DNA of 41,987 nucleotides, taken from positions 1 through 41,987 of the IMG/VR virus record IMGVR_UViG_647533160_000006. One strand, written 5' to 3'. The translations under genes were made by a program, and so were the position numbers. This document shows, piece after piece, positions 1,009 through 40,298 of the stretch (the stretch's first letter is position 1; each line of letters opens with the position of its first letter). Source of the DNA: a virus (lineage: Duplodnaviria; Heunggongvirae; Uroviricota; Caudoviricetes). The notes under the pieces are model-generated. The model saw only the letters and a program-made list of their open reading frames with translations, ran no database searches and had not been told where the DNA came from.

Positions 1009-1083
1009 GTCCTCTTAGTTAAATGGATATAACGAGCCCCTCCTAAGGGCTAATTGCAGGTTCGATTCCTGCAGGGGACACCA
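1009..1083 (+). tRNA. argW: tRNA-Arg (anticodon CCU)
   Basis: 75-nt sequence GTCCTCTTAGTT...GCAGGTTCGATTCCTGCAGGGGACACCA; acceptor stem pairs, anticodon loop CTCCTAA, T-loop GGTTCGATTCC, encoded CCA end. Confidence 0.9.
1069..1083 (+). other. attL core (prophage left junction inside argW 3' end)
   Basis: 15-bp CTGCAGGGGACACCA at the 3' end of argW is repeated exactly at 40284-40298; integrase gene follows ~160 bp downstream. Confidence 0.6.
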
Positions 1084-1244
1084 TTTATCAGTTCGCTCCC
1101 ATCCGTACCAGTCCGCAAAATCCCCTGAATATCAAGCCTTCCGTATATTCAAAGTTCGTCATGGTTCGCGTCAGATCGTTGACAGCCGCACTCCATGACG
1201 GGTAAAAAGTGGATAAAATAATTTTACCCACCGGATTTTTACCC

Positions 1245-2402
1245 ATGCTCACCGTTAAGCAGATTGAAGCAGCAAAGCCGAAAGAAAAACCATACCGCCT
1301 TCTCGATGGTAATGGCCTGTACCTTTATGTCCCTGTATCCGGGAAAAAGGTATGGCAGCTTCGCTACAAGATTGACGGTAAGGAGAAAATCCTGACCGTA
1401 GGAAAATATCCGCTAATGACTTTGCAGGAGGCAAGGGATAAAGCATGGACTGCGAGGAAAGACATCTCGGTTGGCATCGATCCGGTAAAAGCGAAAAAGG
1501 CTTCGTCTAATAACAATTCCTTTAGCGCCATTTACAAGGAATGGTACGAGCACAAGAAGCAAGTCTGGTCAGTAGGGTATGCGACTGAACTTGCCAAAAT
1601 GTTTGATGACGACATTTTACCTATCATCGGCGGCCTTGAAATTCAGGATATTGAGCCGATGCAACTGCTGGAAGTAATCCGCAGATTTGAAGATCGCGGT
1701 GCAATGGAGCGAGCCAACAAAGCACGCAGAAGATGCGGCGAGGTTTTCCGTTACGCTATTGTCACCGGCAGGGCTAAATATAACCCGGCACCTGACCTTG
1801 CTGACGCCATGAAGGGATACCGCAAGAAGAACTTCCCGTTTCTTCCTGCAGACCAGATCCCGGCATTCAACAAAGCACTGGCAACATTTTCAGGAAGTAT
1901 CGTATCGCTCATTGCGACTAAAGTTTTGCGCTACACAGCCCTAAGAACGAAAGAGCTTCGCTCCATGCTATGGAAGAACGTTGATTTTGAAAACAGGATT
2001 ATCACCATCGACGCCAGTGTGATGAAGGGACGCAAAATTCATGTGGTCCCGATGTCAGACCAGGTGGTTGAACTTCTCACTACACTAAGCTCAATCACTA
2101 AACCAGTATCAGAGTTTGTTTTTGCCGGGCGCAACGATAAGAAAAAGCCAATCTGCGAGAACGCTGTGCTACTTGTGATCAAACAAATCGGCTATGAGGG
2201 TCTGGAAAGCGGCCACGGATTCAGGCATGAATTCAGCACGATTATGAACGAGCACGAATGGCCTGCTGACGCTATTGAAGTGCAACTGGCACATGCCAAC
2301 GGCGGATCTGTGCGCGGTATTTACAACCATGCTCAGTATTTCGATAAGCGCAGAGAAATGATGCAGTGGTGGGCGGACTGGATTGATGAAAAGGTGGAGT
2401 GA
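1245..2402 (+). CDS. intS: Tyrosine recombinase / phage integrase (IntS-like)
   Basis: ORF next to argW; translation from MLTVKQIEAAKPKEKPYRLLDGNGLYLYV gives 385 aa, the length I recall for E. coli IntS; the track ORF starts at an upstream GTG (1209) without a convincing RBS. Confidence 0.85.
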   Translation: MLTVKQIEAAKPKEKPYRLLDGNGLYLYVPVSGKKVWQLRYKIDGKEKILTVGKYPLMTLQEARDKAWTARKDISVGIDPVKAKKASSNNNSFSAIYKEWYEHKKQVWSVGYATELAKMFDDDILPIIGGLEIQDIEPMQLLEVIRRFEDRGAMERANKARRRCGEVFRYAIVTGRAKYNPAPDLADAMKGYRKKNFPFLPADQIPAFNKALATFSGSIVSLIATKVLRYTALRTKELRSMLWKNVDFENRIITIDASVMKGRKIHVVPMSDQVVELLTTLSSITKPVSEFVFAGRNDKKKPICENAVLLVIKQIGYEGLESGHGFRHEFSTIMNEHEWPADAIEVQLAHANGGSVRGIYNHAQYFDKRREMMQWWADWIDEKVE

Positions 2403-2512
2403 TCCACCTTAACCACTATCGAAGTGCACAAAGCCTTGCAATTAAGTGCAAAGCTTTGTATATGCACCTTAGCTTATTTATATAAAATAAATTAATATCA
2501 AAGATATCCTTA

Positions 2513-4819
2513 CTAAGGACTTATTGCCCCAAATGCTTTGAATATTGCACCTTCCCCTTCTCCAGAAGATGTGCATACAAAACCAATGTGACCACCTGGC
2601 GAAGGATTTTTGAAAAATAAAACATCTCCTCTAACCCAATATCCAGTTTTTGGCAACTGTGTTACAGAAAATATTCTTTGATACCCTGCTACATTCTGCG
2701 ATTCATACAAATATGAATCCGTCCCTAAAGAAAGGAATTGTTTTGCCCCTACAGAAGATTTGGCATCACTATCAACAAGGCGACCCGCCCTTCCCCCTGA
2801 ATTTATTAATGGATACAACCAAAGTATGGTGTCTTTCTCTTGCCCAACCCCTGATATTGCTGCATTTTTTATAGATGCATTTTCAATTCCAGACACACCT
2901 ATATATGCTCGTTGCGAATCGGTACCGTTACCTATTGTCCTATTTATTAATTCAAAATTTTCTATCTTTACTGGATTTTCAAAATTAAGTATTTTTATAC
3001 CATTTGTTGCGGCAAACGTGATATCTCCGTTAACAGTGACAGTCAGGCCATCTATTACAGCTTCATATATTGAACCTATTGTTCCTCTTCCAGGCTTGAA
3101 CCCGGATGATATGATATTACATTCACTGAATGTTAATCTAATTATTTTAGAACTATCAAAATGGGTGCCATTTGATGCGTTCGTTAAAGAACCGTCTGGC
3201 TTGGTATCATAATGATTACATCTTATCAGTTTTGCAGCTCTTAAGTCGACTGAATGATCAAAGAACTCATTTCTGTGCTCTCCAATCAACCCTCTAAAAG
3301 TGCAATCAATGTATTTTAAATTAGGTGTATTTGATTTGCATGTTATGTTGAAAGAATTTGAAAGATATGAGTTTACCACCTTAATGTCATTAACTGGATT
3401 CGATTGAGTCCTATAGATGCTAAATGAAGAGAATTTTGCTTCATTTGCAGTAACTCCTTCAAGTACTACATTTGAAATTTTGCGTACTTCTGACTCTATG
3501 GCAAAGTTATGTCCAGGTGAACTTGATATACTACCAAGCCCGGAGTTATAGGCGTCGCCACTAATATAAATATTGTCTCCGCCAGCAACAACAAAAGCTG
3601 AACGCCCCATTTTGTTAATAGAGAAATTAGTAACTCGTGAATAACAATCATCTCCATTCAATCCTGCTAAATAAATAGCATCCATTGCTCCGTCATATGC
3701 TGTATAATGTGCATCAAATATCAAAACCTTATGATCAATAAACCAAAATCCATATTCTGGACATTGATATCCAGAATCCCCGAACTCCCCGCCTAATATT
3801 ACACTCTTTCCATTGAAATCAATATTAACTCTTCCTGAGATGGAAATAATTGGACAGCCATTAAACCCAAATAAAATACCTCTATTTGCACGATAGTCAA
3901 AATTTGTTTGAATTGTTTTAATTGGGAGGCCAGTTACCGGATCAAATGACCCAACCCGCAATCCATCTGAGAAAATAAAATTGCTATCATTAAATTCATA
4001 CCGCAGTGGATAATTGAAATTTCTTACTGTACATTTCTGGTTTGGTATATAAGACCCGCCAAATCCTGTCGCACCTGAAAGATACTGGCTTCCAACATAA
4101 AAATCTCCTTTTGGAAAAATTACCCTCACAGGCCCACTTCTTGTTTCAATATATCTCGCAAGCCTTTCAAGAATTTCATCATTTTTTGCACCATCATTAC
4201 TTTCATGTAACTTAAATGGTTCTATTCCTACATATATTGTTTCTTCTTTTATAAAAGAAACAGGCTCCCATAATGAAGGTTCTGGGTAACTCCCAGGAGG
4301 GACAAGAACATTATCTAATCCTTTCCTTGTATAAACTTTACCTTCTTTAAGAAAAAGCCCTGCCTGTCTCCTGTCGTCAATTGTAAATCCTGACTCAAAT
4401 GTTCCTATTAGATTAATACCATAGCTATTAGATAGCTCTTTCCAAATATTAAAAAGATTATGCTCCACCTGTTTCCGTAACTGATCAGGATCATACTTCA
4501 GCACATTCGGAAAATAGAACTGCTGCGCCCCATATGCATCGTACACAGCCATAGAATGACCTTGCACAGTTACGAACTTGGCAATCTGTCCGTTATATAC
4601 CGGATATCCGGCAGCGTTAATGATGATTGGTTGCGAAACGGGAACGTGAGAACCGTCTTCGTTCTCCACATAAACCTGAATCTGGTTTTCAGGATTTACC
4701 GGATCAGTGTCAATTTTACCGATATAAATTTTGCCATTGGCTACGGCTTTAAAAGAACGAGCCATAGTGAAGAGTTGCGAAGGCATAGATACAATCACAT
4801 TGGCTGTAATGTCTGTCAT
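2513..4819 (-). CDS. Tailspike protein (P22 gp9-like N-terminal head-binding domain, divergent receptor-binding region)
   Basis: 768 aa; first ~110 aa ([43 protein letters not shown]...VLKYDPDQ) match the recalled P22 tailspike head-binding domain; the remainder is not recognisably P22, Sf6 or HK620. Confidence 0.85.
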
Positions 4820-4877
4820 TTAATTTGCTCCAGATACAATGAATCGCCGCAGCATGGCTACGGTGAATTTTGGGCAT

Positions 4878-4900
4878 AAAAAAACCCAGCCGAAGCTGGG
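4878..4900 (-). terminator. Rho-independent terminator between ant and tailspike gene
   Basis: Minus-strand read CCCAGC-TTCG-GCTGGG followed by TTTTTTTAT. Confidence 0.7.
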
Positions 4901-4919
4901 TCGTTGCGTTGGTTATCTG

Positions 4920-5798: not shown

Positions 5799-5866
5799 GT
5801 CAATATTTCCTAATCCGATTTGTTGATACCGAAGCCCTGACTGTTCCCGCAGTTGGGGCTTCAACT

Positions 5867-6028: not shown

Positions 6029-6044
6029 ATTCACCTCACAATAT

Positions 6045-6061
6045 AGGTCCACCGTGGACCT
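6045..6061. promoter_or_regulatory. Mnt operator (Omnt)
   Basis: Perfect 17-bp palindrome AGGTCCACCGTGGACCT in the arc-mnt divergent region. Confidence 0.8.
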
Positions 6062-6070
6062 ATTGAGAAT

Positions 6071-6091
6071 ATAGTAGAGTGCTTCTATCAT
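6071..6091. promoter_or_regulatory. Arc operator (Oarc)
   Basis: 21-bp ATAGTAGAGTGCTTCTATCAT, matching the Arc operator as I recall it, adjacent to Omnt. Confidence 0.75.
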
Positions 6092-6118
6092 GTCAATACA
6101 CTAACTTGGAGTGATGGC

Positions 6119-6370: not shown

Positions 6371-6388
6371 AGGTGGGTCCTATTTATT
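6356..6388. terminator. Bidirectional hairpin terminator (mnt 3' end / lipoprotein gene 3' end)
   Basis: ACCCACC-TGAA-GGTGGGT flanked by an A-run on one side and CCTATTTATT on the other; convergent genes end here. Confidence 0.65.
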
Positions 6389-6806
6389 AGTCTTGCTTTG
6401 TTGATGGTATAAGAGATGCGTTTGCCTCTTTTGGCTTCAAGGTATACATCCCACCATTAAAAGGATCTACAGCAAGCCAACCAATTAACCCACCAAACAC
6501 AAGGTTTCCACCAATATACCAACCATTAGCATTGGCTTTGATTGGCAGGGTAACTGGTTCGTACCCATCCTTTTCCATAGTGATCTGGTAGCTCTTTTTG
6601 CCAAAATAACTACCATCTGACTTGGCAAGAGTTACTCCTTGCGGGGTCTTGCCTTGCGCAACAATCACGCCTGATTCGTCTTTTACTTTAAAGCTCGCAC
6701 CGGAAGGATTGCTGTTCACTTGCACGAGCTGTGTTTCGTCACCAACAATAGTTGCGCACCCAGATAACAATATAGCGCCAGCAACAACGCCGATAATCCT
6801 CTTCAT
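6387..6806 (-). CDS. Putative lipoprotein with PEGA-like domain (accessory gene in sieA slot)
   Basis: Signal peptide plus lipobox MKRIIGVVAGAILLSGC; PEGA-like pattern SNPSGA...GKTP...KDGYEP; C-terminal Gly-rich hydrophobic segment; sits between gp16 and mnt. Confidence 0.6.
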   Translation of the reverse strand: MKRIIGVVAGAILLSGCATIVGDETQLVQVNSNPSGASFKVKDESGVIVAQGKTPQGVTLAKSDGSYFGKKSYQITMEKDGYEPVTLPIKANANGWYIGGNLVFGGLIGWLAVDPFNGGMYTLKPKEANASLIPSTKQD

Positions 6807-6924: not shown

Positions 6925-7254
6925 GTGTTAGAAATAGTCGTACTCGCTCTTGGGATATCCTGTTGCGTACTATATGCAGGGTTAGCTGCCCTCAAGAAAC
7001 AGGTTAAGGAATTAGATCGCTCACATGAAATTGATACAAAAATTGCGCGATTAACAGAAGAGAATAAACACTTAAAAAATTCCATAAGGGCACTAACTGA
7101 TGACAACTACAAACTGTCCCATGCATTGGCTAAGTGGGAAATAGTAAGTTATGAAAGAATGACCGACATGATTTTTTCGTCTTATATGGCTACAAAATCT
7201 CCTGAAACATCAGGAAAAGCAATAATTGCAGCCATTGAAAAGAGAATTAAATAG
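6925..7254 (+). CDS. Small membrane-anchored coiled-coil protein (accessory gene in sieA slot)
   Basis: GTG start 5 nt after AGGAGG; N-terminal TM helix (LEIVVLALGISCCVLYAGLAAL) then heptad-like charged helix; divergent from the lipoprotein gene. Confidence 0.6.
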   Translation: MLEIVVLALGISCCVLYAGLAALKKQVKELDRSHEIDTKIARLTEENKHLKNSIRALTDDNYKLSHALAKWEIVSYERMTDMIFSSYMATKSPETSGKAIIAAIEKRIK

Positions 7255-7273: not shown

Positions 7274-9115
7274 CTACTGCCTGGTAGCTTCGTTAGTTAG
7301 GAGAGGGCGAACGGCGTTAGCAGCCTGATTTAACGCTCGCTCATATGCCGGAGTTCCAGGCTTGACGTTTGCAAGGCGGAGAAGCATGTTTCTTGCTGCT
7401 TTAGACTCATACAAACGCATCATTGCACCAAAGCCAGCCTCAAGCCCCATTGATACGCCAAGAGTTGCAGTTGCGCCAATCGTCCTTATCCTGTTGGCTT
7501 GCGATTGCCCCGTCTGAGTTACTACATTTGCGGTGTCTGACCTTGCTGTTTGCTGTAGAACTTCATGAAGAGCATCAAGCTCTTTCATGTGCTTTCCAGA
7601 AAAAATAGTGTTGTAAATTTCACCGCCTGACTGAGATTTCAGCTTATTAACTTCAGTGATGAACTTGGCTGGAGAGTCACCGGCCTTTTCCGCTATTTTG
7701 CTGACGTAAGCTGCACGCATAGCATCTTTCCCTTTATCATCCAATGCGCTCCAGATTCGTTTCACGTCAGATGGTTTTCTGCTTAATACAACGGTATTTA
7801 TAAGTTCAGGACTGGCTTCACTGCTTGCCTTGTTGAGCTTGTTAGCAATGTTTTTATTAAGCACCTTATTATAAACGTTTGCATAATCGGAATTTGCTTT
7901 AAGGTATTTTGCTGCGTCTGATGCACCGAGGTTTTTAGCAACTGCGTTACGAAGGTCTTTTGACATTGCATTCTCTACCATATTGGTAGCTGCTTTTGCC
8001 TGGTTGGGGAAGACCATAGCATCTCCCTGAACATTAGATCTAAATGCTGTTCTGTGCTGACGCAAGAGATCAAACGTAACATCCAAATCAGTTGCAGGGT
8101 TTGCTAATTCTTCACGTAGGTTACGCAAGGATGTAAGCAGGCTTTGATTGGCAGACGTCCCAAGCCGTTCCTGTCTTGCGATCGCTGTATTCAGAGCATT
8201 CATGGTATTTGTGGTATCAACTGCGGCATTACCCATTTTATTGGTGACGTCATTGATAACAGCGCCAGCGGCATCCTTCCGCCACCTTAACGTGGTGGTC
8301 AGAGATTTCACCACATCATCAGGGTTATACTCACCAAAACGGTCAAAATAATTACTTACCAGCTTACTACGCGTTGCATATTGCTCAGCTCGCTTTGAGC
8401 CTGTCCCGAGCAAAGCTCCCTCGGCATCCTGAGTAAGGCCGCGAGTGAAAGCATTTTTCGGCGGGATAACATCAGATGTCATTGGTGTCACGCCCATCGA
8501 TTCTGATGTGGCAATTTTCTTCGCCACTTCTGGCGCAATATCACCTTTTATAGCCGTTATTCCACGCCCTATTCCCTTTGCTGCTGCGGAAAGAACACCC
8601 TGAGCGGCAAGGTTAACTCCGGCATTTTTAGCTGCATTTTGTGCGAAATCGCCTTTCTGATTTGCGGCCTCTGCCAGTGATCCAATAGCCATGCTTCCTG
8701 CCGTTCCAACTCCTGGAACTAAATACCCACCAATTGTTTCACCTGCTTGTGCGTAGGGGTCTGTCGGTCTGTCTACTGGACGATAGACATCATCCAATAC
8801 TTTTGGCCCACCAAGCCCCTGACTGATTGCATTAATCAGACTTGCGCCACCCTGCAATACGTCAAATGGTATGTTTACCAGACCACGACCAGCCTGTTCT
8901 GTAATTTGCCCTGCACTTTGACCACCAGTGAGCCAACCGCCAGCTTGTTGCATCAATGATGGTTCTTCCCGTGTTGGTGCATTATTGGCATGATTAACTG
9001 TTTGTTGCTGAACAGCCTGACCAGCAAAATACTCATCAATGGCGGTGCCAATATCTTCGGTGCTCGTACCATCAGGAAAGGTAAATGTCTTACCGTTTGC
9101 AGTTACTTTCATCAT
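7274..9115 (-). CDS. Ejection (DNA transfer) protein, P22 gp16-like
   Basis: 613 aa, last gene of the late operon, size and order as P22 gene 16; Ala/Gly-rich. Confidence 0.8.
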
Positions 9116-10527
9116 TCCACCGTAAATTGAATGCCTGATTTTGAGGTATATGATCCAACCTGATTCCGTGGTTCTCCTGAAGGTGTCGAATCTTGTGCTG
9201 GCGCTGCGTCAGTATTCATTGACATATACCGCTTAACGGCACTCCCCAATGATTCACCTTTTTTAACATCCAACCCCAATATCTGACCGCCATTACGCGA
9301 TTGTCCAGGGTTGCCATTCGCGCTCATCCACTCGGCTTTAAACTCATTAAACTGCGCGTTTCGTCGCTCAAGGTTTGCCATTGCATCAAGCCATCTTGCG
9401 ACCGTCTCAGGGTTATCCATGTCAGTTGGCGCACCCTGTCGAACGATCTCAACGTCTTTATCCGTTGCTGGGCCGGGAGGTAGGAATTTAAGAACCTGAC
9501 TGTTAACAAGGGCATTTTGGCGAATGCGCAAATCACGCAATGTTGTATCGCTTCCGGTAAGTTTTGCGAACATGTTCTGTGCGTTACCGAACAAACCTGT
9601 CGTTGGTTTTTCTGCTCTGAACTGTTGAGCAAGCGCACTCATGGAATTGGCTGAGTTTGATGATGCTGTGGCATTGTTTACAGCCGTCTCGATGCCTTTT
9701 TCCATATTTACTGACAGCTTAGGTGCTTCGCTAATCAACTGCTGAGCCTTTTCCTGCGCTTGCTGCATCTTAAACCCGAACTCTTGCTGATCCAGAGCCA
9801 AGCGTTGTGCTGCGATATTGTGCCCAGTCATTGCTGACTGATAGGAAAGGTTTTGCCCTCTCGCCTGAAGTGCTTCACCAGCCTGATTGCTGCGGATTGT
9901 CTCTGCCAGCCTGCCTCGGTCAATTTCACGACCAGCCATCTTATCCTGAACAGCAAACGCCTTTTCTGGTCCAAGCGCACCGAGAGACATAGTAGTCAGC
10001 ATGTGTGATAGCTGCTCTGGATTCTGGATACCTGTCTGAATCATCCAGTCAGCATTCGCACCAACGCGATTTAACCTGTCCTTGTTGTCAGTAATGAATT
10101 TACTGTAGGCTTCCGGTCCCTGAGAAAGAGCGACGTTAGCCCTCATGGCTAAATCGCCCATATCGTTGCGTTGCTGATCATTAAGACCTGAAAACGCCTG
10201 TTGTGCCTGTGCAACAAACGCTGGATTTTCCTGGGCAAACTTAAATAGTCCCGATGGATCACCAGAAGCCCATGCATCAGCATGAACCTTATTGAACGCA
10301 CTAATCGCTTTCTGTTGCTGTTCCTGATTGTAAATATCAGCAACTCCAGCCAGACCACGTAACGCGGTCAGACCAACGTTATTTGCACCTGAGCGAGCCA
10401 ACTCATTGTTTTCGCGGATCAGACCAAGCGTTGCGTTAATGTCGCTTGCCTTTGGCGCATTCTCATTTTGCGTACCGATGCCAGCCAGAAAACCACCAGA
10501 ATTAATACCCTGTTGCCACGTAGCCAT
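9112..10527 (-). CDS. Ejection protein, P22 gp20-like
   Basis: 471 aa (P22 gp20 is 471 aa), position between gp7 and gp16 homologs. Confidence 0.8.
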
Positions 10528-10536
10528 GATTACCCC

Positions 10537-11229: not shown

Positions 11230-11231
11230 AG

Positions 11232-14453: not shown

Positions 14454-14691
<238 letters not shown>

Positions 14692-27571: not shown

Positions 27572-27605
27572 CCAAATAAAAAGGCCTGCGATTACCAGCA
27601 GGCCT
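27572..27605 (-). terminator. tR2-like intrinsic terminator between replication genes and nin region
   Basis: Minus-strand read AGGCCTGC-TGGTAATC-GCAGGCCT followed by TTTTTATTTGG, right after the primase-helicase stop. Confidence 0.65.
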
Positions 27606-31043: not shown

Positions 31044-31238
31044 CTATTTGTTTTTCTTGTTGCTTGGGAAAGGACGAACTTCCTCTCCAATCACACTGCC
31101 ATCAGGCTTTACCGTAACCATGATGTTACGGCCTGCCAGAATGGCCTTGCTGATAGCGCACTGGATTACACCAAAGTCACTGGCTGCTTTAGCCTGTCCA
31201 TGGATTTTGGCGTAATCGGCAAGTGTCATTCGAATCAT
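31044..31238 (-). CDS. cro: Cro-like repressor
   Basis: C-terminal part [40 protein letters not shown] parallels lambda Cro; GGAGA RBS; divergent from cI. Confidence 0.8.
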
Positions 31239-31268
31239 ATGCACTCTCCGTTATTAACCATGAACAAA

Positions 31269-31333
31269 GAATACTACAGGTATTCAAAGCAATCAATACT
31301 CAGGGTATTTTTAGTTTAAGTACCTTAGCTATT
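31269..31333. promoter_or_regulatory. OR operator cluster with pR/pRM
   Basis: GAATAC-N5-GTATTC at 31269-31285, AATAC-N5-GTATT at 31294-31310, weaker AGTAC-N5-CTATT at 31318-31333, ~25 bp apart; TAGAAT -10 six nt before the cI ATG. Confidence 0.7.
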
Positions 31334-31344
31334 AGAATTAAGCT

Positions 31345-32061
31345 ATGGAAAATAAAAAATCACTGACGACAGAACAGCTCGAAGACGCTAAGCGGCTTAA
31401 GGCTTTGTATGAGTCAAAAAAGAAAGAATTGGGAATAACCCAATACTCAATCGCTGATGAACTGGGTATCACCCAAGGAGCGGTAGGGCATTATCTTAAT
31501 GGCAGAAACGCGCTAAACGTTGAGGTTGCATCTGGTTTTGCACGATTGTTGCAAGTCTCAATTGCTGATTTTAGCCAGTCAATTGCTGCCAAGGTTGCAG
31601 AACAGGCAGAAAGCCTTAAGAGCGATGCCAACGTAAGGTATGCAGGGGAATACAGAGCAGGAAAGAGGTATCCGGTGTTAAGCAGTATCCAGGCTGGCTC
31701 GTGGTGTGAAGCATGCGAACCATACACCATTAAAGACATAGATGTTTGGCTTGAGTCTGACGCGCATATTCAAGGTAATGCGTTTTGGCTTAAAGTGGAA
31801 GGTGATTCAATGACGGCACCGGTTGGGTTAAGCATTCCAGAGGGAACATTCGTTCTTTTCGATACCGGAAGGGAGGCGATCAACGGCAGCTTGGTCATAG
31901 CAAAACTTTCTGACTCTAACGAAGCAACATTCAAGAAGCTGATAATCGACGGAGGAAATAAATACCTCAAGGGACTTAACCCTGCATGGCCTCTCGTGCC
32001 AATCAATGGAAACTGCAAGATTATAGGCGTTGCAATTGAGACAAAACTAAGGCTGGTTTGA
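31345..32061 (+). CDS. cI: CI-like prophage repressor (HTH + LexA-type S24 peptidase domain)
   Basis: 238 aa; N-terminus LTTEQLEDAKRLKALYESKKKELGITQYSIADELG parallels lambda CI; C-terminal ...VEGDSMTAP...FKKLI... autocleavage-domain pattern. Confidence 0.85.
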   Translation: MENKKSLTTEQLEDAKRLKALYESKKKELGITQYSIADELGITQGAVGHYLNGRNALNVEVASGFARLLQVSIADFSQSIAAKVAEQAESLKSDANVRYAGEYRAGKRYPVLSSIQAGSWCEACEPYTIKDIDVWLESDAHIQGNAFWLKVEGDSMTAPVGLSIPEGTFVLFDTGREAINGSLVIAKLSDSNEATFKKLIIDGGNKYLKGLNPAWPLVPINGNCKIIGVAIETKLRLV

Positions 32062-32078
32062 TCACGCAAGGGGCGCTT

Positions 32079-32447
32079 ATGGTTGGAACCGCTATAGCAA
32101 GCTTTTTTGGGATGTTGGCAATCTCGACAATTTACGGCTTAGCGCATGCTTTTATTGCGAAATCTCTATCAGAAAAAATAAGCCAGGCTTGGGCGCATAG
32201 GTCAGCTCGTTTCATGATTCTGGTGATCATAGCAATACAAGGGATATCTGCATTTATCCTCTATGGATCAAGCTTATACCTATTGTATCAAGGCGCGACA
32301 TTTACGCCTTACACCAGTGATTACGGAACTCTATACGATGGTAGTGAAGACATCTCTATGGCTTGGATTGTCTTTGGTTTATCTATGGCCGTGTCTGTTG
32401 TAGCAGATATCATTAAGGTAATTCTCGTCTTAACCTTCGCTGACTAA
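32079..32447 (+). CDS. Small multi-TM membrane protein co-transcribed with cI (rex slot)
   Basis: ATG 6 nt after AAGGGG; ~122 aa with four hydrophobic segments; overlaps/abuts cI stop; no similarity to RexA/RexB that I can see. Confidence 0.6.
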   Translation: MVGTAIASFFGMLAISTIYGLAHAFIAKSLSEKISQAWAHRSARFMILVIIAIQGISAFILYGSSLYLLYQGATFTPYTSDYGTLYDGSEDISMAWIVFGLSMAVSVVADIIKVILVLTFAD

Positions 32448-32535
32448 CCTATAATCCCGGCAGCAATAGCTATCGGGATCCACTTCACATATCCCGCATA
32501 AAAAGCACTGAACAAGCAGACACCGAAAAAAATAA

Positions 32536-32621
32536 ATATCCTTTGTATTCATTTGCTTATCATTATTTCATCAAAAATAAATACCTTGGGTATTTACACA
32601 ATAAAATACCTACAGTATTCT
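32536..32621. promoter_or_regulatory. OL operator cluster with pL
   Basis: Same half-site family as OR: AATAT-N5-GTATT (32536-32550), AAATAC-N5-GTATTT (32579-32595), AATAC-N5-GTATT (32604-32620); candidate -35 TTTACA / -10 TATTCT. Confidence 0.65.
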
Positions 32622-32666
32622 TTAGCCATCAGCAGGACGCTGGTAGCCAAACGGAACATATTGGCA

Positions 32667-32708
32667 GGCTCTTTAACATTGATGGGATTGTCCCGCCGAA
32701 ATGCGGGA
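32667..32708 (+). promoter_or_regulatory. nutL (boxA + boxB)
   Basis: GGCTCTTTAACA (boxA) then TCCCGC-CGAAAT-GCGGGA (boxB); RNA sequence identical to the nutR boxB. Confidence 0.75.
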
Positions 32709-33019
32709 ACCAAAGAGTAGTTGGCTTTGGGGTGACGTGAAGTGCAGCTGCACGACGGCAACCGGAAGATAAGCACCCGGCGCGTCACCGCCAAAGTCAA
32801 TTCCATAGGCGAAATGCAGCCGCCAAACACAGCCAATGCTGCACATGCAACAGGAGGATTTATGTGAATGCATAACTTCAAAACCGAGGTTAATTAAATC
32901 TCTCGATCCGAGCATTGACCTATTAGGTGGCGAGATGCTCTTTCTGCCCCTCAGTTCGAGGGGCCAGAAACCACTTTGCAATCACTATCAATTCCAAAGT
33001 TGTTTCATCGGAGGTCAAC

Positions 33020-33325
33020 ATGACAGTAGTCATTACATATCTGGCTGACGATAACGCCAGAAATCGCCGCAGAGCACGCAGACAGGCTCAACGTGAACAG
33101 GCAATGCAAGAGCAGCTACTGGCGCGAAAAATTGCGCTAAAGCTCTCTGGTTGCGTCAGGGCAGATAAAGCAGCATCACTCGGAAGCCTTCGCTGCAAGA
33201 AGGTAGTAGAAGTCGAGCGTAAACAGAACCGTATTTACTACCGCAAGCCACGCAGTGAAATAGGTGTGACTTGTGTTGGTCGCCAGAAGCAACGCGGAAA
33301 ATCAATTCCAGCTTATTGCGATTGA
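33020..33325 (+). CDS. N: N-like antiterminator
   Basis: From ATG 5 nt after GGAGG; N-terminal Arg-rich motif DDNARNRRRARRQAQREQ; ~101 aa; the track ORF is extended upstream. Confidence 0.75.
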   Translation: MTVVITYLADDNARNRRRARRQAQREQAMQEQLLARKIALKLSGCVRADKAASLGSLRCKKVVEVERKQNRIYYRKPRSEIGVTCVGRQKQRGKSIPAYCD

Positions 33326-33506: not shown

Positions 33507-33593
33507 ATGGAAGAAGAATTTGAAGAGTTCGAAGAGCATCCGCAGGATGTGATGGAACAATACCAGGACTATCCGTATGACTACGACTATTGA
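33507..33593 (+). CDS. Acidic aromatic micro-protein (28 aa)
   Basis: GAGGTG RBS 5 nt before ATG; MEEEFEEFEEHPQDVMEQYQDYPYDYDY; stop overlaps the ral start; the RBS-start sequence is duplicated at 33828-33845. Confidence 0.35.
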   Translation: MEEEFEEFEEHPQDVMEQYQDYPYDYDY

Positions 33594-33777
33594 TAAAAAT
33601 CAATGGTGTGGACAATTCAAGCGATGCAATGGATGCAAGCTGCAATCGGAATGCATGGTTAAGCCTGAAGAAATGTTTCCTGTAATGGAAGATGGGAAAT
33701 ATGTCGATAAATGGGCAATACGAACGACGGCAATGATTGCCAGAGAACTTGGTAAACAGAATAACAAGGCTGCCTGA
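33577..33777 (+). CDS. ral: Restriction alleviation protein Ral
   Basis: 66-aa MTTTIDKNQWCGQFKRCNGCKLQSECMVKPEEMFPVMEDGKYVDKW... matches my recollection of lambda Ral. Confidence 0.7.
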   Translation: MTTTIDKNQWCGQFKRCNGCKLQSECMVKPEEMFPVMEDGKYVDKWAIRTTAMIARELGKQNNKAA

Positions 33778-34981: not shown

Positions 34982-35152
34982 ATGCAACAGTTCGCTATTG
35001 CAGGGGCGGCATCGGTTCGCCCTTTCAACCCGATTTTATCGGTACAGCATTCACGAAAAAATATTTTAACCGGAGCAGACTTTAAACAACCAAGAATGAA
35101 AAGCTTGCTCGAAAAGCTTTGGGATATTTTGAAACAACAAGGCCGTCCATGA
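34982..35152 (+). CDS. cIII: CIII-like FtsH inhibitor
   Basis: 56 aa from ATG after AAGGAG: MQQFAIAGAASVRP...MKSLLEKLWDILKQQGRP parallels lambda CIII; the track ORF is extended upstream. Confidence 0.7.
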   Translation: MQQFAIAGAASVRPFNPILSVQHSRKNILTGADFKQPRMKSLLEKLWDILKQQGRP

Positions 35153-35233: not shown

Positions 35234-35545
35234 ATGATGATTCTGACTCTGAATGATAAGCGTGAAATATCGCAAATAATCGCAAGTTTTACTGATGAAG
35301 ATTACGAGCGAATCAACAGTGAAGTTGATCGCCTCTGCAAACGTTGCGACCCAATAAGCGAAATGCTTCGCTCATATAAACCAGATGAACACACTAAAGA
35401 CGCTATCGACTGGCTGGAAGATGATGACTGTAACTATCAGGAAAAATCCGCTGAATGGTTCTGGGATGCAATAACCGAAAGAGTTAAGGCTGAATATGCC
35501 TTCGCAATATTCAAACGCAGACACATTTATGGAGAAGCAGCATGA
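35234..35545 (+). CDS. Hypothetical early protein (103 aa)
   Basis: ORF after AGGAGA; directly upstream of and overlapping recT; a 35-aa ORF (35149-35256) coupled to the cIII stop overlaps its start. Confidence 0.5.
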   Translation: MMILTLNDKREISQIIASFTDEDYERINSEVDRLCKRCDPISEMLRSYKPDEHTKDAIDWLEDDDCNYQEKSAEWFWDAITERVKAEYAFAIFKRRHIYGEAA

Positions 35546-36444
35546 GCAATATCGTTGAATTCGTTAAACAGCAGGAGCAGTTATTCTGCGGAGCATTGAC
35601 TGAACAGACGGTGACATGGGCTAAGGAAAGCCAGTTTGCAATTCAGTATTTCCAGAAAAACGATTACCTGGCTAAAACAGCACTGGCAAACCCAACCAGC
35701 GCACAGAACGCCATCATCAATGTTGCGGCGATCGGCATCACCTTAAACCCGGCCAGCAAACTTGCTTATCTAGTTCCGCGCGACGGCATGGTTTGCCTTG
35801 ATATCAGCTATATGGGATTACTTCACCTTGCGCAATCGACAGGTTCAATTAAGTGGGGGCAATGCAAACTGGTGTACTCAAACGACACCTATGAATCAAA
35901 TGGCCTTGATTCAGCACCAACCCACAAATACAACGCATTTGGTGAGCGAGGCTCTATTGTTGGAGGTTATTGCACGGTTAAAACAGCAGATGGTGACTAC
36001 CTGACTGAAGAAATGAGTCTGGCGGAAATTAAAGCTGTGGAAGCAACGAGCAAGGCAAAGAATGGACCGTGGAAAACATTCTGGGAAGAGATGGCGCGTA
36101 AAACAATAGTTAAACGCGCCAGCAAATACTGGCCTAAAGCCCAGCGACTGGATAATGCCATTCACCTGCTTAACGAAGATGAAGGTATGCATCAGGAACC
36201 AGTTATGCCGCACAAATCAGAGGAAGATATCCGCGAAGATGAACGGAAACGCCAGCAGGAAATTATGGAAAAAGCACAACTTCTTTGTGATGAAATGGCT
36301 CAGGCAGAAAACATGGATGATTTGAAGCGATATTTTGCAGAAGCATATCGCCTGACATCTGGAATGAAATTACAGCAGAACGTACAAGCCATTTACATAG
36401 AATGCAAAGCGAAACTGGAGGTTGCCAGTGAGCAAACTGTATGA
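35542..36444 (+). CDS. recT: RecT-family single-strand annealing recombinase
   Basis: 300 aa with conserved-looking blocks ...NVAAIGITLNPASKLAYLVPRDG... and ...GPWKTFWEEMARKTIVKRASKYWP. Confidence 0.75.
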   Translation: MSNIVEFVKQQEQLFCGALTEQTVTWAKESQFAIQYFQKNDYLAKTALANPTSAQNAIINVAAIGITLNPASKLAYLVPRDGMVCLDISYMGLLHLAQSTGSIKWGQCKLVYSNDTYESNGLDSAPTHKYNAFGERGSIVGGYCTVKTADGDYLTEEMSLAEIKAVEATSKAKNGPWKTFWEEMARKTIVKRASKYWPKAQRLDNAIHLLNEDEGMHQEPVMPHKSEEDIREDERKRQQEIMEKAQLLCDEMAQAENMDDLKRYFAEAYRLTSGMKLQQNVQAIYIECKAKLEVASEQTV

Positions 36445-36910
36445 AATTGCCAATGAATACGCAAAATTGATGGATTCAGATTTAGAACCAGAGATGATTG
36501 CTGACACAATAGAAGGCATGGAAGGAGAATTTACCGATAAAATAGAGCAACTTCTTTCCGTCATTAAAAATGAATCTGGTTATGCTGAACGCCTCAAGGA
36601 AGAGGCAAAGTCGCTGAATGAGCGAGCCGCAGTAATTCAAAATAAGATTGACAGCATCAAATCATATATAGCGTCATCGCTTGAAATGGTTGGCAAGAAA
36701 AATATTCGAGCAGGTATTCACCAGGTAACAATCCGCAAACCGTCAGAAACTGTAGAAATCATCGACTCAAGCGCCCTTCCTCCTGAATACGTTGAGTTTG
36801 AAACGACAATTAAAGCCGACAAACTGGCAATCAAACACCAACTAAAAGCAGGAATAAATATCCCCGGCGCTCAACTCAAAGTTGGGAAACCTTCACTTCT
36901 TATCAAATAA
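36428..36910 (+). CDS. Recombinase-associated protein (Siphovirus Gp157-like)
   Basis: ~160 aa from GTG 6 nt after GGAGG; acidic helical N-terminus; immediately follows the annealing protein as Gp157-family genes usually do. Confidence 0.45.
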   Translation: MSKLYEIANEYAKLMDSDLEPEMIADTIEGMEGEFTDKIEQLLSVIKNESGYAERLKEEAKSLNERAAVIQNKIDSIKSYIASSLEMVGKKNIRAGIHQVTIRKPSETVEIIDSSALPPEYVEFETTIKADKLAIKHQLKAGINIPGAQLKVGKPSLLIK

Positions 36911-36921: not shown

Positions 36922-37236
36922 ATGAAAAAGACTCCATGGGAGAAATGGGAAGTCGATTTCTTGCGCGAGGTAGCGGCGACAATGCCAGTTGAAGTTATCG
37001 CTGAAAAACTGGAAAGGACTGAAAAAGCAGTAATGGCGAAAGCAACAAGGATTGGCGCTGACATTGTTAGCCGACTTCGTGGAAGACGATGGACAAGAGC
37101 CGAAGTATCACTTTTCGGTAAGTTCTCCGCAGAAGAAATAGCAATTGCAACCTGCCGCTCAATTTATTCAGTGAGAGCTATGCGATACAAGCTAAAAAAA
37201 CTCGATGAAGAGAGAACAGGCATACAAATAAATTAA
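36922..37236 (+). CDS. Hypothetical basic protein with internal duplication
   Basis: 104 aa; two similar W...AEEIA...R segments; possibly nucleic-acid binding. Confidence 0.5.
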
Positions 37237-37252
37237 CAAAGAGGAATTTACC

Positions 37253-37417
37253 ATGAGAGGGCTTGCATACAATCCCGGCATTCTTCCGGCAGAAATGATT
37301 ATTCGCCAACGCGTAAAGCCAATGCCATCGAGAGAGGAATTGCTTAAGAGAAATTCTTTTCCATCAGTAAATCAAAACAAATATCTGAATGCGATGTGGC
37401 GGAGTGGGAAGAAATGA
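37253..37417 (+). CDS. Small hypothetical protein (54 aa)
   Basis: ATG 6 nt after AGAGGAA; stop overlaps the next start (ATGA). Confidence 0.4.
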
Positions 37418-38073
37418 AACAAATGTCACTAATTGAGATGGATGGATTTCTGAAAGGTAAATGCATACCACGAGATTTAAAGGTTAACGAAACAAACGCT
37501 GAATATCTGGTGCGTAAATTTGCTGAAGCGGAGGCCAAGATTTCGGCTCTGTCCGAAGACCACCAGAAAGCGATTGAGTCAATTAAGCAGGCTGATGCAG
37601 CTGTTAAGTTGGCACACGAGAAGTTTTCGGCGCTGGCTGCGGAGAATGCGGGGCTGAAGTCTGGCGTAACTTACTTCGCATATTCACCTGAATATGGATT
37701 CGATTATTTCAAAGACAAACAGAGTGCAATTGATACCGCTCAGGCAGAGATTGATGCTTACCGCGAAGATGTAGAGAACGGGTGGAACGAGGATGTCCAG
37801 CGCATTTCCTGGGGTATTGTGGTGCAACAGGCGCAGGGGTTCGACGCGCAGGGGCTGCACACGTCCGATATCCGGCATACATATCAGACGTGCGATTACA
37901 GACTGGTAGATGCGGTTGAAACCCCAGCCACCGACTCTTTCCTGTCTGAAGTACGGGCGCAGGGGGTGGAGATGTTCTCAGAAAAATTCGGAGGTGGCAC
38001 TCCGCTTTCCAATATGGTCAAAGAGATAGCGGCCGATTTTGCGGCGCAACTCCGCAAAGGAGGAAACCAGTGA
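37414..38073 (+). CDS. Hypothetical early protein with N-terminal coiled coil
   Basis: ~219 aa from ATG; heptad-rich N-terminus; the track ORF begins at an upstream GTG. Confidence 0.55.
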
Positions 38074-38756
38074 TCAAGATTGACTATCAGGCACTGCGTG
38101 AAAAGGCAGAGAAAGCAACTAAAGGAAGCTACATCGTAGGGCATACATCTGTTAACCAGCACGGTAATTTAACAGGAGTTTTTGTTTGTCAAAAATGGAA
38201 AGGAGAACCCGGTGGCGTGATTGCAGAATGTCATGTTAACTGCCTGGTTGAAACAGATGCTCAGGCTTATGCAAACGCTGAATTTATTGCTGCCTTTAAT
38301 CCAAAGATTGCTCTGGCACTACTGGATGAACGGGAAAGAAACCAGCAATACATCAAATCACGCGACCAGGAGAACGAGGATATTGCACTAACGGTTGGGA
38401 AGCTGAGAGTTGAGCTGGAAGCCGCAGAGAAGCGCAACGCAAAATTACAAAGCGAGAATGCATACATCCGCAACCGGTACAAAGAACTGGACCTATTAAT
38501 CGGGAAAAACATTCTTGTCATGCAGGCTGCGATTATCGAATGGCAGGCAACTGGCGACGCTAAAAGCGGACTGGCATGGATTTATAACACACTGTTTGGC
38601 CAAGGCGAATTGCCGGACAAATCTGAGAAAGATGCTCAGGCCTACTTTAAGCGCAAATATGCACCGATTGACGAAAAGCTTATGGAGCTTCACAAGTGGT
38701 TTTGGGAGCAAAGTGAAGCCGAGCGCGCCGCTGGCATTCGCATCAAAGGAGAGTGA
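38070..38756 (+). CDS. Ead/Ea22-like early protein
   Basis: 228 aa; N-terminal [19 protein letters not shown]...FIAAFNPKIALALLDERE and central coiled coil resemble the Ea22-like family as I recall it. Confidence 0.6.
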   Translation: MIKIDYQALREKAEKATKGSYIVGHTSVNQHGNLTGVFVCQKWKGEPGGVIAECHVNCLVETDAQAYANAEFIAAFNPKIALALLDERERNQQYIKSRDQENEDIALTVGKLRVELEAAEKRNAKLQSENAYIRNRYKELDLLIGKNILVMQAAIIEWQATGDAKSGLAWIYNTLFGQGELPDKSEKDAQAYFKRKYAPIDEKLMELHKWFWEQSEAERAAGIRIKGE

Positions 38757-38757
38757 T

Positions 38758-39435
38758 ATGAGCGCTATAACCAAAGAACGTATCAAATTATTCATTAAAA
38801 ATCCGCTTGATAACGGGCTTACCCGTGGCGAACAAATGGAACTGGCACGGATTGCACTGGCATCGCTGGAACGCGAACAGATTCGCCACGAGCATGCCAA
38901 ATGGTCTGACTCCACATTTGGCTGCGTTGGCCCCATTGGTCCGCTGAAACATCTCTCAAAAGAGGCACTGGAAGCCGCAGCCGAACCAGACGATCTTAGC
39001 GAGTGGGCTGATATGCAGTTTCTGTTGTGGGATGCACAGCGCCGTGCTGGCATCAGCGATGCTGAAATTACCGTTGCTATGGAAGATAAATTGAAGATCA
39101 ACATGGAGCGCCAGTGGCCTGAGCCAAAAGATGGTGAGCCTCGCTTGCACATTAAAGAACCCGGCAACTCTCCGGTAACTCCGGATGGTTGGGTCATGGT
39201 GCCGAAGAGACTAACAGCCGAGAACGGCGCTAAGGGTGCGCTATCCGGTGAATTTTCAGAAACTACGTTTATCAGCTGCCCGGAATGCTTTGGCGATGAT
39301 GATTGCGATACCTGTGACGGTAGCGGGCGGATTGAAATTAAAGTACCAGTCACGTGGACGACCATAAAATCCATCTGGGATAAAGGTATTGCGTATTTTG
39401 CAGCAGAACCGCCTCAGGAGGTTAACCGTGGCTAA
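38758..39435 (+). CDS. Hypothetical early protein with C-terminal Cys cluster
   Basis: 225 aa from ATG overlapping the upstream stop; C-terminal CPECFGDDDCDTCDGSGR zinc-ribbon-like motif; the track ORF starts further upstream in-frame. Confidence 0.55.
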   Translation: MSAITKERIKLFIKNPLDNGLTRGEQMELARIALASLEREQIRHEHAKWSDSTFGCVGPIGPLKHLSKEALEAAAEPDDLSEWADMQFLLWDAQRRAGISDAEITVAMEDKLKINMERQWPEPKDGEPRLHIKEPGNSPVTPDGWVMVPKRLTAENGAKGALSGEFSETTFISCPECFGDDDCDTCDGSGRIEIKVPVTWTTIKSIWDKGIAYFAAEPPQEVNRG

Positions 39436-39712
39436 CCTGCAACTTGCCGTTAAAGGTAAATTTTTCGATGCCATGATTCGCGGAGAGAAAACGGAGGAGT
39501 ATCGCCTGTGTAATGACTACTGGAATAAGAGAATCATGTTCCGGGAATATGACCGCCTGATTATCACAAAGGGATATCCGAAGCGCGACGACTCCAGTCG
39601 CAGAATTGATGTCCCGTATGACGGATATGAAATCAAGACAATCACACATCCGCACTTCGGCGATAAACCGGTAAAGGTGTTCGCGATAAAGGTGAATATC
39701 GGCAATGAATAA
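39428..39712 (+). CDS. Hypothetical early protein (94 aa)
   Basis: GTG 7 nt after AGGAG; VANLQLAVKGKFFDAMIRGEKTEEYRL... Confidence 0.5.
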   Translation: MANLQLAVKGKFFDAMIRGEKTEEYRLCNDYWNKRIMFREYDRLIITKGYPKRDDSSRRIDVPYDGYEIKTITHPHFGDKPVKVFAIKVNIGNE

Positions 39713-39745
39713 CAATCCTCGAACTCGCGGGGATTTCTTTTATCT

Positions 39746-39770
39746 GAACTCGCTACGGCGAGTTTTGTTT
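39746..39770 (+). terminator. Intrinsic terminator
   Basis: AACTCGC-TACG-GCGAGTT followed by TTGTTTT. Confidence 0.65.
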
Positions 39771-39784
39771 TATGGAGATGATAA

Positions 39785-39952
39785 ATGCACTTCCGGGTGA
39801 CAGGTGAATGGAATGGAGAACCATTCAACAGAGTTATCGAAGCGGAGAACATCAACGACTGCTATGACCACTGGATGCTGTGGGCGCAGATAGCGCATGC
39901 AGACGTAACCAATATTCGAATTGAAGAACTGAAAGAACACCATGCCGCCTGA
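39785..39952 (+). CDS. Small hypothetical protein (55 aa)
   Basis: ATG 7 nt after GGAG; MHFRVTGEWNGEPFNRVIEAENINDCYDHWMLWAQIAHADVTNIRIEELKEHHAA; sits between two terminators. Confidence 0.45.
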   Translation: MHFRVTGEWNGEPFNRVIEAENINDCYDHWMLWAQIAHADVTNIRIEELKEHHAA

Positions 39953-39967
39953 TGGCGGTTTTTTATT
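39945..39967 (+). terminator. Intrinsic terminator ending the left early operon
   Basis: CCGCC-TGAT-GGCGG followed by TTTTTTATT. Confidence 0.75.
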
Positions 39968-40009
39968 ACCTGATTTGCAGGTTCGATTCCCTATTCGGAG
40001 ATAGTACTC

Positions 40010-40210
40010 ATGCAACACGAACTACAACCTGATTCATTGGTTGATTTGAAATTCATCATGGCTGATACTGGCTTTGGTAAAACCTTCATCTATGACCGGA
40101 TTAAGTCCGGCGACCTGCCTAAAGCCAAAGTTATCCACGGGCGAGCAAGATGGTTATATCGTGACCATTGTGAATTCAAAAATAAGCTCTTAAGCCGCGC
40201 CAATGGGTAA
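40010..40210 (+). CDS. torI: AlpA/TorI-family excisionase (recombination directionality factor)
   Basis: 66-aa MQHELQPDSLVDLKFIMADTGFGKTFIYDRIKSGDLPKAKVIHGRARWLYRDHCEF...; winged-helix excisionase pattern; matches my recollection of TorI; adjacent to attR. Confidence 0.7.
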   Translation: MQHELQPDSLVDLKFIMADTGFGKTFIYDRIKSGDLPKAKVIHGRARWLYRDHCEFKNKLLSRANG

Positions 40211-40283
40211 AATAGCGGGTAAAATATTTCTCACATATAAAAAACACCATTCCAATCAATCCCCTGCCTCGTCAAGTAGATGT

Positions 40284-40298
40284 CTGCAGGGGACACCA
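40284..40298 (+). other. attR core (displaced copy of argW 3' end)
   Basis: CTGCAGGGGACACCA identical to argW positions 1069-1083. Confidence 0.6.

Follow-up and report, generated by a model that had tools for sequence, protein, structure and literature searches.

A very probably complete P22-like prophage with a rare tailspike receptor-binding domain in argW of Escherichia coli

The IMG/VR virus record IMGVR_UViG_647533160_000006 comprises 41,987 nucleotides (nt), analyzed here over its full length and referred to as the window. Positions 1084-40298 hold an element of 39,215 bp that very probably represents the complete genome of a temperate P22-like podovirus (Lederbergvirus), integrated in the 3' end of the tRNA gene argW of Escherichia coli. 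Twelve morphogenesis genes and the tailspike gene are collinear and full-length, with amino acid (aa) identities of 61-100% to P22 and 85-100% to IME10, HK620, or Sf6, and no frameshift, internal stop, or insertion sequence element was found in the virion, lysis, replication, or regulatory genes. The element is a new recombinant within a familiar phage group, at a familiar integration site, and the regulatory and recombination features singled out at first pass are already known from HK620, P22, or KplE1, the prophage of E. coli K-12 also named CPS-53. Its only uncommon part is the receptor-binding domain of the tailspike.

Translated searches (tblastn) against P22, IME10, HK620, Sf6, and lambda placed the minus-strand interval 7274-21093 in one-to-one correspondence with P22 genes 16-20-7-14-26-10-4-5-8-1-2-3, with gaps no larger than a small open reading frame (ORF). 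Together with the protein lengths, these searches bore out the order 3-2-1-8-5-4-10-26-14-7-20-16, followed by mnt/arc/ant and the tailspike, which a first-pass annotation of the sequence had proposed. Lengths equal those of P22 for gp20 (471 aa), gp10 (472 aa), gp8 (303 aa), and gp2 (499 aa), and gp16 has 613 aa compared with 609 in P22; gp5 (431 aa) and gp1 (721 aa) have the IME10 lengths, and gp26 (282 aa) that of Sf6. The products of genes 2, 1, 8, 5, 4, and 10 are 99-100% identical to their IME10 counterparts, and gp7, gp10, and gp14 are 97-100% identical to those of HK620. The coordinates of these and all other features are listed in Table 1.

The only tRNA gene in the window, tRNA-Arg(CCT) at 1009-1083 (ARAGORN, Rfam), is argW, and its 3'-terminal 15 nt (CTGCAGGGGACACCA, 1069-1083) are repeated exactly at 40284-40298. 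Because this end of argW recurs and E. coli chromosome lies on both sides, 1084-40298 is an insertion into argW, and the 15-bp direct repeat reported in the first-pass annotation was recovered as two exact copies. E. coli K-12 carries the same repeat under the annotation pawZ, where CPS-53/KplE1 ends on the right. A search of 5,426 complete E. coli genomes found the left flank, yfdC-argW-intS, in every one, with identity of up to 99.7%. The right flank is cscB, encoding a LacY-type sucrose transporter of the major facilitator superfamily; K-12 carries dsdC at this flank, instead of the csc sucrose locus found here.

When the attR side is joined to the attL side, the resulting attP is collinear with those of HK620 and Sf6 and nearly identical to them, and both att arms closely match attL and attR of KplE1, from which they differ very little. 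The plus-strand intS gene (1245-2402) is transcribed away from attL and converges on the minus-strand tailspike gene (2513-4819). An integrase at attL and an excisionase at attR, flanking attP with the integrase directed toward the tailspike, had been described at first pass, in agreement with these coordinates and with the rebuilt attP. Judged by sequence, the int-attP-xis segment corresponds to the known IntS/TorI module of KplE1, HK620, and Sf6, and the separation of int and xis across attP is an already published arrangement. In KplE1, transcription of intS starts from a promoter within attL, and the opposite end of the prophage carries torI (PMC2951348). The module has been characterized experimentally and is kept in KplE1, HK620, Sf6, CUS-3, and other argW prophages (PMC2951348; PMC3509656), and Kapi1 is a further P22-like argW phage with an identical int/xis layout (PMC8787464). 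Near-identity to the experimentally mapped attL of KplE1 likewise predicts an intS promoter inside attL of this element. A TTGC-to-TTAC (G-to-A) change in this element, relative to the annotated CII-binding site of HK620 upstream of torI, was considered as a regulatory defect and rejected, since KplE1 carries the same base.

By sequence, control of lysogeny is of the HK620 type. The operator region between cro and cI lies within a stretch identical to HK620 at 136 of 136 nt (HK620 9100-9235, annotated OR1-3), and the OL/pL/nutL region is about 98% identical, differing by a handful of single-nucleotide polymorphisms (SNPs) that fall outside the operators. Because of these identities, the half-sites AATAC-N5-GTATT, flagged at first pass as unlike those of lambda, are the annotated HK620 operators. 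With an identical repressor, identical operators, and a Cro protein 98% identical, the immunity type would be that of HK620 (immC). The arginine-rich motif of the N antiterminator (DNARNRRRARRQAQ) also differs from that of lambda (DAQTRRRERRAEKQAQ), as had been noticed earlier. The N protein itself is a hybrid: residues 1 to ~63, including the arginine-rich motif, are HK620-type (94%), and residues ~64 to 101 are lambda/Sf6-type (ERKQNR...GRQKQRGKSIPAY), whereas HK620 and P22 N have a different C-terminus in common. The replication genes are mEp043-type; the primase-helicase gene is 97.5% identical to that of mEp043 at the nt level, and the O-like gene contains two 19-bp iteron-like repeats (30044-30085). 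A second immunity region corresponds to a complete P22 immI, with mnt, arc, ant, sar, and the Pant/Pmnt operator region, in which Ant is a divergent allele.

In late control, the pR'/qut region shows one difference from lambda within the qut stretch. The first-pass annotation had called Q, S, R, Rz, NinB, RusA, CIII, and Ral lambda-like; Q, S, R, NinB, and Ral are indeed 98-100% identical to lambda, whereas RusA is more precisely HK620/HK140-type and CIII is only 39% identical to lambda. No RusA is annotated in the lambda record (NC_001416). In the nin region, which contains a PF07102 match, NinB is 99% identical to lambda, and ninH, rusA, hkbD, and roi are 95-100% identical to HK620; RusA, roi, and ninH represent HK620/HK140-type alleles.

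The uncommon part of the element lies in its tailspike. Its first 113 residues form a P22 head-binding domain (PF09008, 1-113/113, E=6.8e-67), with PDB sequence matches to the N-domains of the Sf6 and P22 tailspikes. Residues ~125-768, the receptor-binding domain, are encoded within the lowest-GC stretch of the window (36-41%). Among 50,697 phage records, they are most similar to a tail fibre of an Aeromonas phage (28% identity), and no relatives were found in IMG/VR. A single genome among the 5,426 complete E. coli genomes, that of VCSW5, encodes this domain (tailspike 99% identical), and 5.8 billion protein clusters yielded ~15 homologues, most of which carry a different N-terminal anchor of the PF18668 type; outside the 99% cluster, the nearest is 65% identical. 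An AlphaFold model built on a small alignment is beta-rich, with a predicted local distance difference test score (pLDDT) of 68.7 overall and 80-94 over most of residues 320-660. Foldseek returned the tailspikes of Sf6, P22, HK620, and CBA120 as best matches, together with other right-handed beta-helix glycan enzymes. The model thus suggests an ordinary tailspike architecture whose glycan specificity is uncharacterised; receptor-domain swapping is typical of tailspikes. It is conceivable, although we would not favor it, that the polysaccharide specificity of residues ~125-768, and possibly their enzymology, is new to any phage. In that event, a new O-antigen or capsule depolymerase would be obtainable from the prophage, which would also mark its host as having an unusual surface glycan.

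The site between tailspike and intS holds O-antigen cassettes elsewhere, namely gtrABC in P22, oac in Sf6, hkcF in HK620, and yfdGHI in KplE1. In this element, the gap is 110 bp (2403-2512) and contains no gtr, oac, or wzy O-antigen-conversion genes; seroconversion of the lysogen from this locus is therefore not expected.

Taken together, these modules supply every part that a P22/lambdoid life cycle requires. At the sequence level, lysogeny is held by the HK620-identical CI acting on HK620-identical operators, with Cro, CII, CIII, and N/nut antitermination, and the P22-type mnt, arc, sar, and ant region controls the antirepressor. The prophage is probably SOS-inducible via CI autocleavage; N-dependent early transcription would follow, and then excision by IntS, encoded at attL, and the TorI-type directionality factor, encoded at attR, whereby the 15-bp core would restore argW. 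The lambda-identical Q is predicted to switch on the late genes at a lambda-type pR'/qut. The pac site of P22 lies in gene 3, and identity to P22 at 488 of 495 nt of this gene points to headful packaging by the P22 mechanism, probably from that site, into a short-tailed (podovirus) virion. Lysis would proceed through lambda-type S, R, Rz, and Rz1, and the virions would probably adsorb via the beta-helix tailspike, which may bind and most likely cleave a surface polysaccharide (O-antigen or capsule). Inducibility is plausible on this basis.

Several observations weigh against so complete a reading. No excised or phage form of the exact genome was found, and the exact tailspike has just two public occurrences, both in integrated prophage context. 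A metagenomic viral contig of 39,456 bp in IMG/VR (IMGVR_UViG_3300045988_068452) crosses the attP junction with the attR-arm SNPs of this element; because it is just 93-96% identical in the torI/ea/RecT region, this attP-form contig is a free or circular-form relative and not the same phage. Missense or regulatory defects are invisible to the sequence methods used. For KplE1, whose recombination module is the same, a lack of SOS inducibility has been reported, although this prophage has no CI module (PMC2951348). Ant shares just 55% identity with its P22 counterpart, and its action on the HK620-type CI is putative. Confidence in the tailspike model is only moderate (pLDDT 68.7), and although its Foldseek matches have high probability, the TM-scores with known tailspikes are low, at 0.2-0.37.

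The element could accordingly be a cryptic prophage, its frames intact and its lytic cycle blocked by missense or regulatory mutations, by the absence of a susceptible host, or by incompatible partners, such as the hybrid N, the pairing of mEp043-type replication genes with an early region of HK620 type, or that of an IME10-type head with a needle of Sf6 type. The finding of integrated copies only is consistent with this explanation, as are the defective state of the KplE1 remnant and the decay seen in the lineage, where three pseudogenes are annotated within the ea region of the VCSW5 prophage. However, all essential genes are as long as their functional homologues, and the first-pass statement that no gene is truncated withstood comparison, since the virion, lysis, and regulatory genes compared are all as long as their closest references. 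Moreover, OR, OL, the immI operators, pR'/qut, and the att arms are identical or near-identical to those of viable phages, and the same module combinations occur in the viable isolates IME10, HK140, and mEp043. We consider a cryptic state unlikely and a complete temperate phage genome much the better supported reading.

At the level of whole genomes, P22, IME10, HK620, Sf6, lambda, HK140, and mEp043 account for 76% of the element at >=90% nt identity, and coverage increases to 93% when the argW prophage of VCSW5 is added to these seven phages. No complete E. coli genome among the 5,426 contains the whole element, and the best match covers 64% of its right half; a P22-type head module (>=80% coverage) is present in 195 of them, and the immI-plus-ant segment in 44. 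The first-pass annotation had presented the element as a mosaic join of P22-like and lambda-like parts. The modules are as it described, but their combination is not special: P22-type virion genes with a lambdoid early region are the normal architecture of P22-like phages, P22 included. The mosaic would have arisen by ordinary recombination within the lambdoid gene pool.

A joining of another kind, in which two or more lambdoid prophages of one strain were fused through shared sequence during draft assembly, has the draft state of the source assembly in its favor, as well as the long near-identical stretches common to lambdoid prophages, which can mislead assemblers. The left 14.8 kb of the window is 100% identical to GCA_000163195.1 (GG749328.1) and to a Logan contig from run SRR024257. 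Against a fusion, this independent Logan assembly reproduces the left 14.5 kb exactly, and over the left 21 kb the complete VCSW5 genome is collinear with the element at 96-98%. In addition, the size is right (39.2 kb), each functional module is present as a single copy in canonical order, and the attL and attR halves match and rebuild an HK620-type attP. An assembly chimera is hence very improbable.

Similarity values computed in the manner of VIRIDIC are 69% to the VCSW5 prophage, 43% to IME10, 39% to P22, 37% to HK620, 27% to Sf6, and 10% to lambda. Among phages filed as Lederbergvirus, similarity to P22 is 34% for IME10, 22% for HK620, and 18% for Sf6; because its 39% exceeds the values of HK620 and Sf6, the element lies well within the spread of this group. 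None of these similarities to P22 reaches a 70% genus threshold, and that criterion is therefore not what unites Lederbergvirus. A feature of the group seen here is the lambdoid early region (N, cI, cro, cII, replication, nin, Q, and lysis) upstream of the head genes. Lambda nu1-J and int/xis have no tblastn or blastn match in the element, which places it outside Lambdavirus proper.

Further observations concern the attachment region. The attP region repeats the last 30 nt of argW (1054-1083) in two separate blocks: torI is preceded by a 16-mer (TTGCAGGTTCGATTCC) and followed by the 15-bp core, and the 293 bp between the blocks contain this gene. In tRNA coordinates, the two blocks abut with one base in common. 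An exact match of 16 nt is expected by chance at ~2e-5, and it looks as if the recombination directionality factor (RDF) gene had been inserted into a formerly longer tRNA-homologous attP. The 16-mer was also considered as an element-specific nested or degenerate att and rejected, since an identical split, with the 16-mer in the same place, occurs in HK620, Sf6, IME10, VCSW5, and K-12 KplE1. A full-text literature search for its sequence did not find the 16-mer. Beyond attR, the interval to cscB (40299-40739) encodes a 50-aa DUF4942 protein fragment (40508-40660, +; PF13708, E=8e-6), which is annotated in VCSW5 too and is a remnant of some other element.

Additional accessory features were found inside the prophage. 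Between tR' and an S-proximal lambda-like ORF, ~490 bp (23627-24114) have no match of >=85% in the seven reference phages or VCSW5 and contain nothing but short ORFs on the plus strand and an additional terminator-like hairpin on the minus strand (24056-24031); late-operon morons occupy this position in other lambdoid phages. The predicted 139-aa lipoprotein between gene 16 and mnt (6387-6806) has a weak PEGA/transthyretin-like domain and no PADLOC match, and is a candidate superinfection-exclusion or surface-modifying moron. The neighboring ORF at 6925-7254 can be likened, by position and length alone, to HK620 hkcB, which has 109 aa and directly follows gene 16. In the early-left accessory (ea) region, an EaA-like protein (38757-39435, +) has a dATP/dGTP pyrophosphohydrolase domain (PF04447, E=1e-41) and is a nucleotide-pool enzyme. 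An Ead/Ea22-like protein (38070-38756, +) has an N-terminal PF13935 domain, and its residues 117-215 match the PADLOC model of DpdH (E=1.4e-34), a member of the Dpd defence cluster for 7-deazaguanine DNA modification; no other component of this cluster is present. Among 10 accessory ORFs, PADLOC identified no defence system, returning just this match and a marginal one to LmuB, and an Rfam scan of the whole window found nothing beyond the tRNA and sar.

Table 1 Features of the argW prophage and its attachment sites in the window (a dot marks features without a strand; percentages are identities).
Feature	Coordinates	Strand	Evidence
argW, tRNA-Arg(CCT), integration target	1009-1083	+	ARAGORN; Rfam tRNA, 63.4 bits
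attL core CTGCAGGGGACACCA, 15-bp direct repeat	1069-1083	.	Exact repeat; core as in HK620, Sf6, KplE1
attL arm (P'), overlaps intS promoter region	1084-1244	+	Nearly identical to K-12 KplE1 attL
intS, tyrosine integrase, 385 aa	1245-2402	+	98% aa to HK620, Sf6, IME10 IntS; Pfam integrase domains on the identical gene of another contig
Tailspike (gene 9 equivalent), 768 aa	2513-4819	-	P22 head-binding domain and rare beta-helix receptor-binding domain
ant, antirepressor, 292 aa	4920-5798	-	55% P22 Ant; phrog_245, E=4e-114; Bro-N, P22_AR_C domains
sar antisense RNA	5800-5866	+	Rfam RF00262, 71.6 bits (gathering score 43)
arc repressor, 53 aa	5867-6028	-	99% P22 Arc
immI control region (Pant/Pmnt, Arc and Mnt operators)	6029-6118	.	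89/90 nt identical to P22 38246-38335
mnt repressor, 83 aa	6119-6370	+	98% P22 Mnt, equal length
Predicted lipoprotein, 139 aa, sieA position	6387-6806	-	Lipobox LSGC; phrog_6823 (unknown function)
Accessory ORF, 109 aa, beside gene 16	6925-7254	+	ORF list; 109-aa gene called there in VCSW5 and another contig
Gene 16, ejection protein, 613 aa	7274-9115	-	75% P22 gp16, full length
Gene 20, ejection protein, 471 aa	9112-10527	-	N-terminal half 86% P22, 83% HK620; length as P22
Gene 7, ejection protein, 230 aa	10537-11229	-	98% HK620, 92% P22
Gene 14	11232-11690	-	97-98% HK620 and Sf6
Gene 26, tail needle, Sf6-type long form, 282 aa	11687-12535	-	85% Sf6 gp9 (282 aa), full length
Gene 10, 472 aa	12535-13953	-	100% HK620, 94% P22
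Gene 4, 166 aa (length also called in another contig)	13953-14453	-	99% IME10
Gene 5, coat protein, 431 aa	14736-16031	-	99% IME10, 73% P22
Gene 8, scaffold, 303 aa	16031-16942	-	99% IME10, 86% P22
Gene 1, portal, 721 aa	16956-19121	-	100% IME10, 78% P22
Gene 2, large terminase, 499 aa	19122-20621	-	99% IME10, 93% P22
Gene 3, small terminase	20599-21093	-	100% aa, 488/495 nt identical to P22
Rz spanin	22040-22507	-	94% HK620 Rz
Rz1 lipoprotein, embedded in Rz	22081-22287		Lipobox VAGC
R endolysin, 158 aa	22504-22980	-	98% lambda R
S holin/antiholin, 107 aa, MKM dual start	22964-23287	-	99% lambda S
pR' late promoter, qut, tR' terminator	24123-24213	-	Promoter/terminator scan; near-identical to lambda pR'/qut
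Q late antiterminator, 207 aa	24256-24879	-	100% aa lambda Q
nin region: ninH, rusA, YbcO-type nuclease, roi, ninF, ninX-like, ninE, ninB	24876-27575	-	
Toprim primase / DnaB-like helicase, 626 aa	27635-29515	-	phrog_239, E=2e-171; Toprim_2, AAA_25, DnaB_C
O-like replication initiator, 286 aa	29623-30483	-	PF04492, E=1e-37
cII	30657-30935	-	97% HK620 and IME10 cII
cro	31044-31238	-	98% HK620 Cro
OR1-OR3, pR, pRM	31239-31344	.	Within 136/136 nt identity to HK620 9100-9235 (annotated OR1-3)
cI repressor, 238 aa, LexA/S24 family	31345-32061	+	100% HK620 cI
hkaS-like membrane protein downstream of cI	32058-32447	+	96% HK620 hkaS; phrog_6534
OL1-OL3, pL, nutL	32450-32800	+	~98% HK620 OL/nutL
N antiterminator, 101 aa, hybrid	33020-33325	+	Alignment, tblastn
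ral	33577-33777	+	100% lambda Ral
cIII	34982-35152	+	phrog_550 CIII; 39-46% lambda and HK620
RecT recombinase and Gp157/Gam-like protein	35542-36910	+	PF03837, PF05565; 93% nt HK140
ea genes: D5-like helix-turn-helix, DUF2737, Ead/Ea22-like, EaA-like dATP/dGTP pyrophosphohydrolase, others	36922-39952	+	
16-nt argW T-arm copy, upstream of torI	39975-39990	.	Kept across whole module family
torI-type excisionase (RDF), 66 aa	40010-40210	+	100% to HK620 HkaC, Sf6 gp18, IME10 homologue
attR arm and 15-bp core (40284-40298)	40211-40298	.	Repeat search; comparison with HK620, Sf6, KplE1

As one more recombinant of the lambdoid/P22-like gene pool, the element has little importance beyond cataloguing. 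It shows an E. coli P22-like phage that combines HK620 immunity, P22 immI, lambda Q and lysis genes, and mEp043 replication, and it probably represents a functional temperate phage from an E. coli isolate of the Human-Microbiome era. It also offers an additional natural substrate for the well-studied IntS/TorI recombination system. Some novelty attaches only to the receptor domain of the tailspike, which is rare and could find use as a typing reagent or glycan-specific depolymerase.

Compared with known systems, the element most closely resembles the VCSW5 argW prophage (NZ_CP082355.1, 1456123-1496506), which occupies the same site between yfdC-argW and cscB. The two share intS to gene 3 at 96-98% nt identity over ~21 kb, a tailspike that is 99% identical, the same immI, HK620-type cI/cro, and the RecT/Gp157 module. 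They differ in the needle C-terminus, the nin region, and parts of the ea region; the lysis cassette of VCSW5 comprises a different holin, an RrrD lysozyme, and a different lysis protein, and its replication genes encode a GIY-YIG protein, a replication protein, and an ATP-binding protein in place of the O-like initiator and primase-helicase.

HK620 (NC_002730) shares IntS (98%), TorI (100%), a collinear attP, cI (100%), and cro (98%), as well as roi, hkbD, rusA, ninH, and Q (95-100%), Rz (94%), and gp7, gp10, and gp14 (97-100%). In contrast, its terminase, portal, scaffold, and coat are Sf6-type (27-38% aa identity, or no match at all), mnt and ant are present as remnants only, and it has its own tailspike receptor domain, a DnaB-type P, a different recombination module, and hkcF, an O-antigen polymerase-like gene between tailspike and int. 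IME10 (NC_019501) matches genes 2, 1, 8, 5, 4, and 10 (99-100% aa), IntS (98%), TorI (100%), and S, R, and Q (99-100%), but differs in its c2-like repressor (42%), in genes 20 and 16 (34-41%), in having a distant mnt only (50%), and in its tailspike receptor domain, replication genes, and recombination genes.

P22 (AF217253) has the identical virion gene order, with gp3 at 100%, gp2 at 93%, and gp10 at 94%, and shares Mnt (98%), Arc (99%), sar, the immI control region (89/90), and the overall lambdoid layout. P22 differs in its adjacent int and xis, gtrABC, c2 immunity, gp19 lysozyme, Erf/Abc recombination functions, and endorhamnosidase tailspike, and its coat and portal are 73% and 78% identical to those of the element. 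Lambda (NC_001416) resembles it in Q (100%), S (99%), R (98%), NinB (99%), and Ral (100% aa), in a near-identical pR'/qut, and in the logic of early and late regulation, whereas virion genes, int/xis/att, immunity, and replication P are dissimilar. Finally, KplE1/CPS-53 of E. coli K-12 shares attB in argW, the 15-bp repeat, intS at attL, and torI at attR, but is a remnant of 10 kb in which the immunity, replication, lysis, and virion modules are all missing, and it carries gtr-type genes beside intS.

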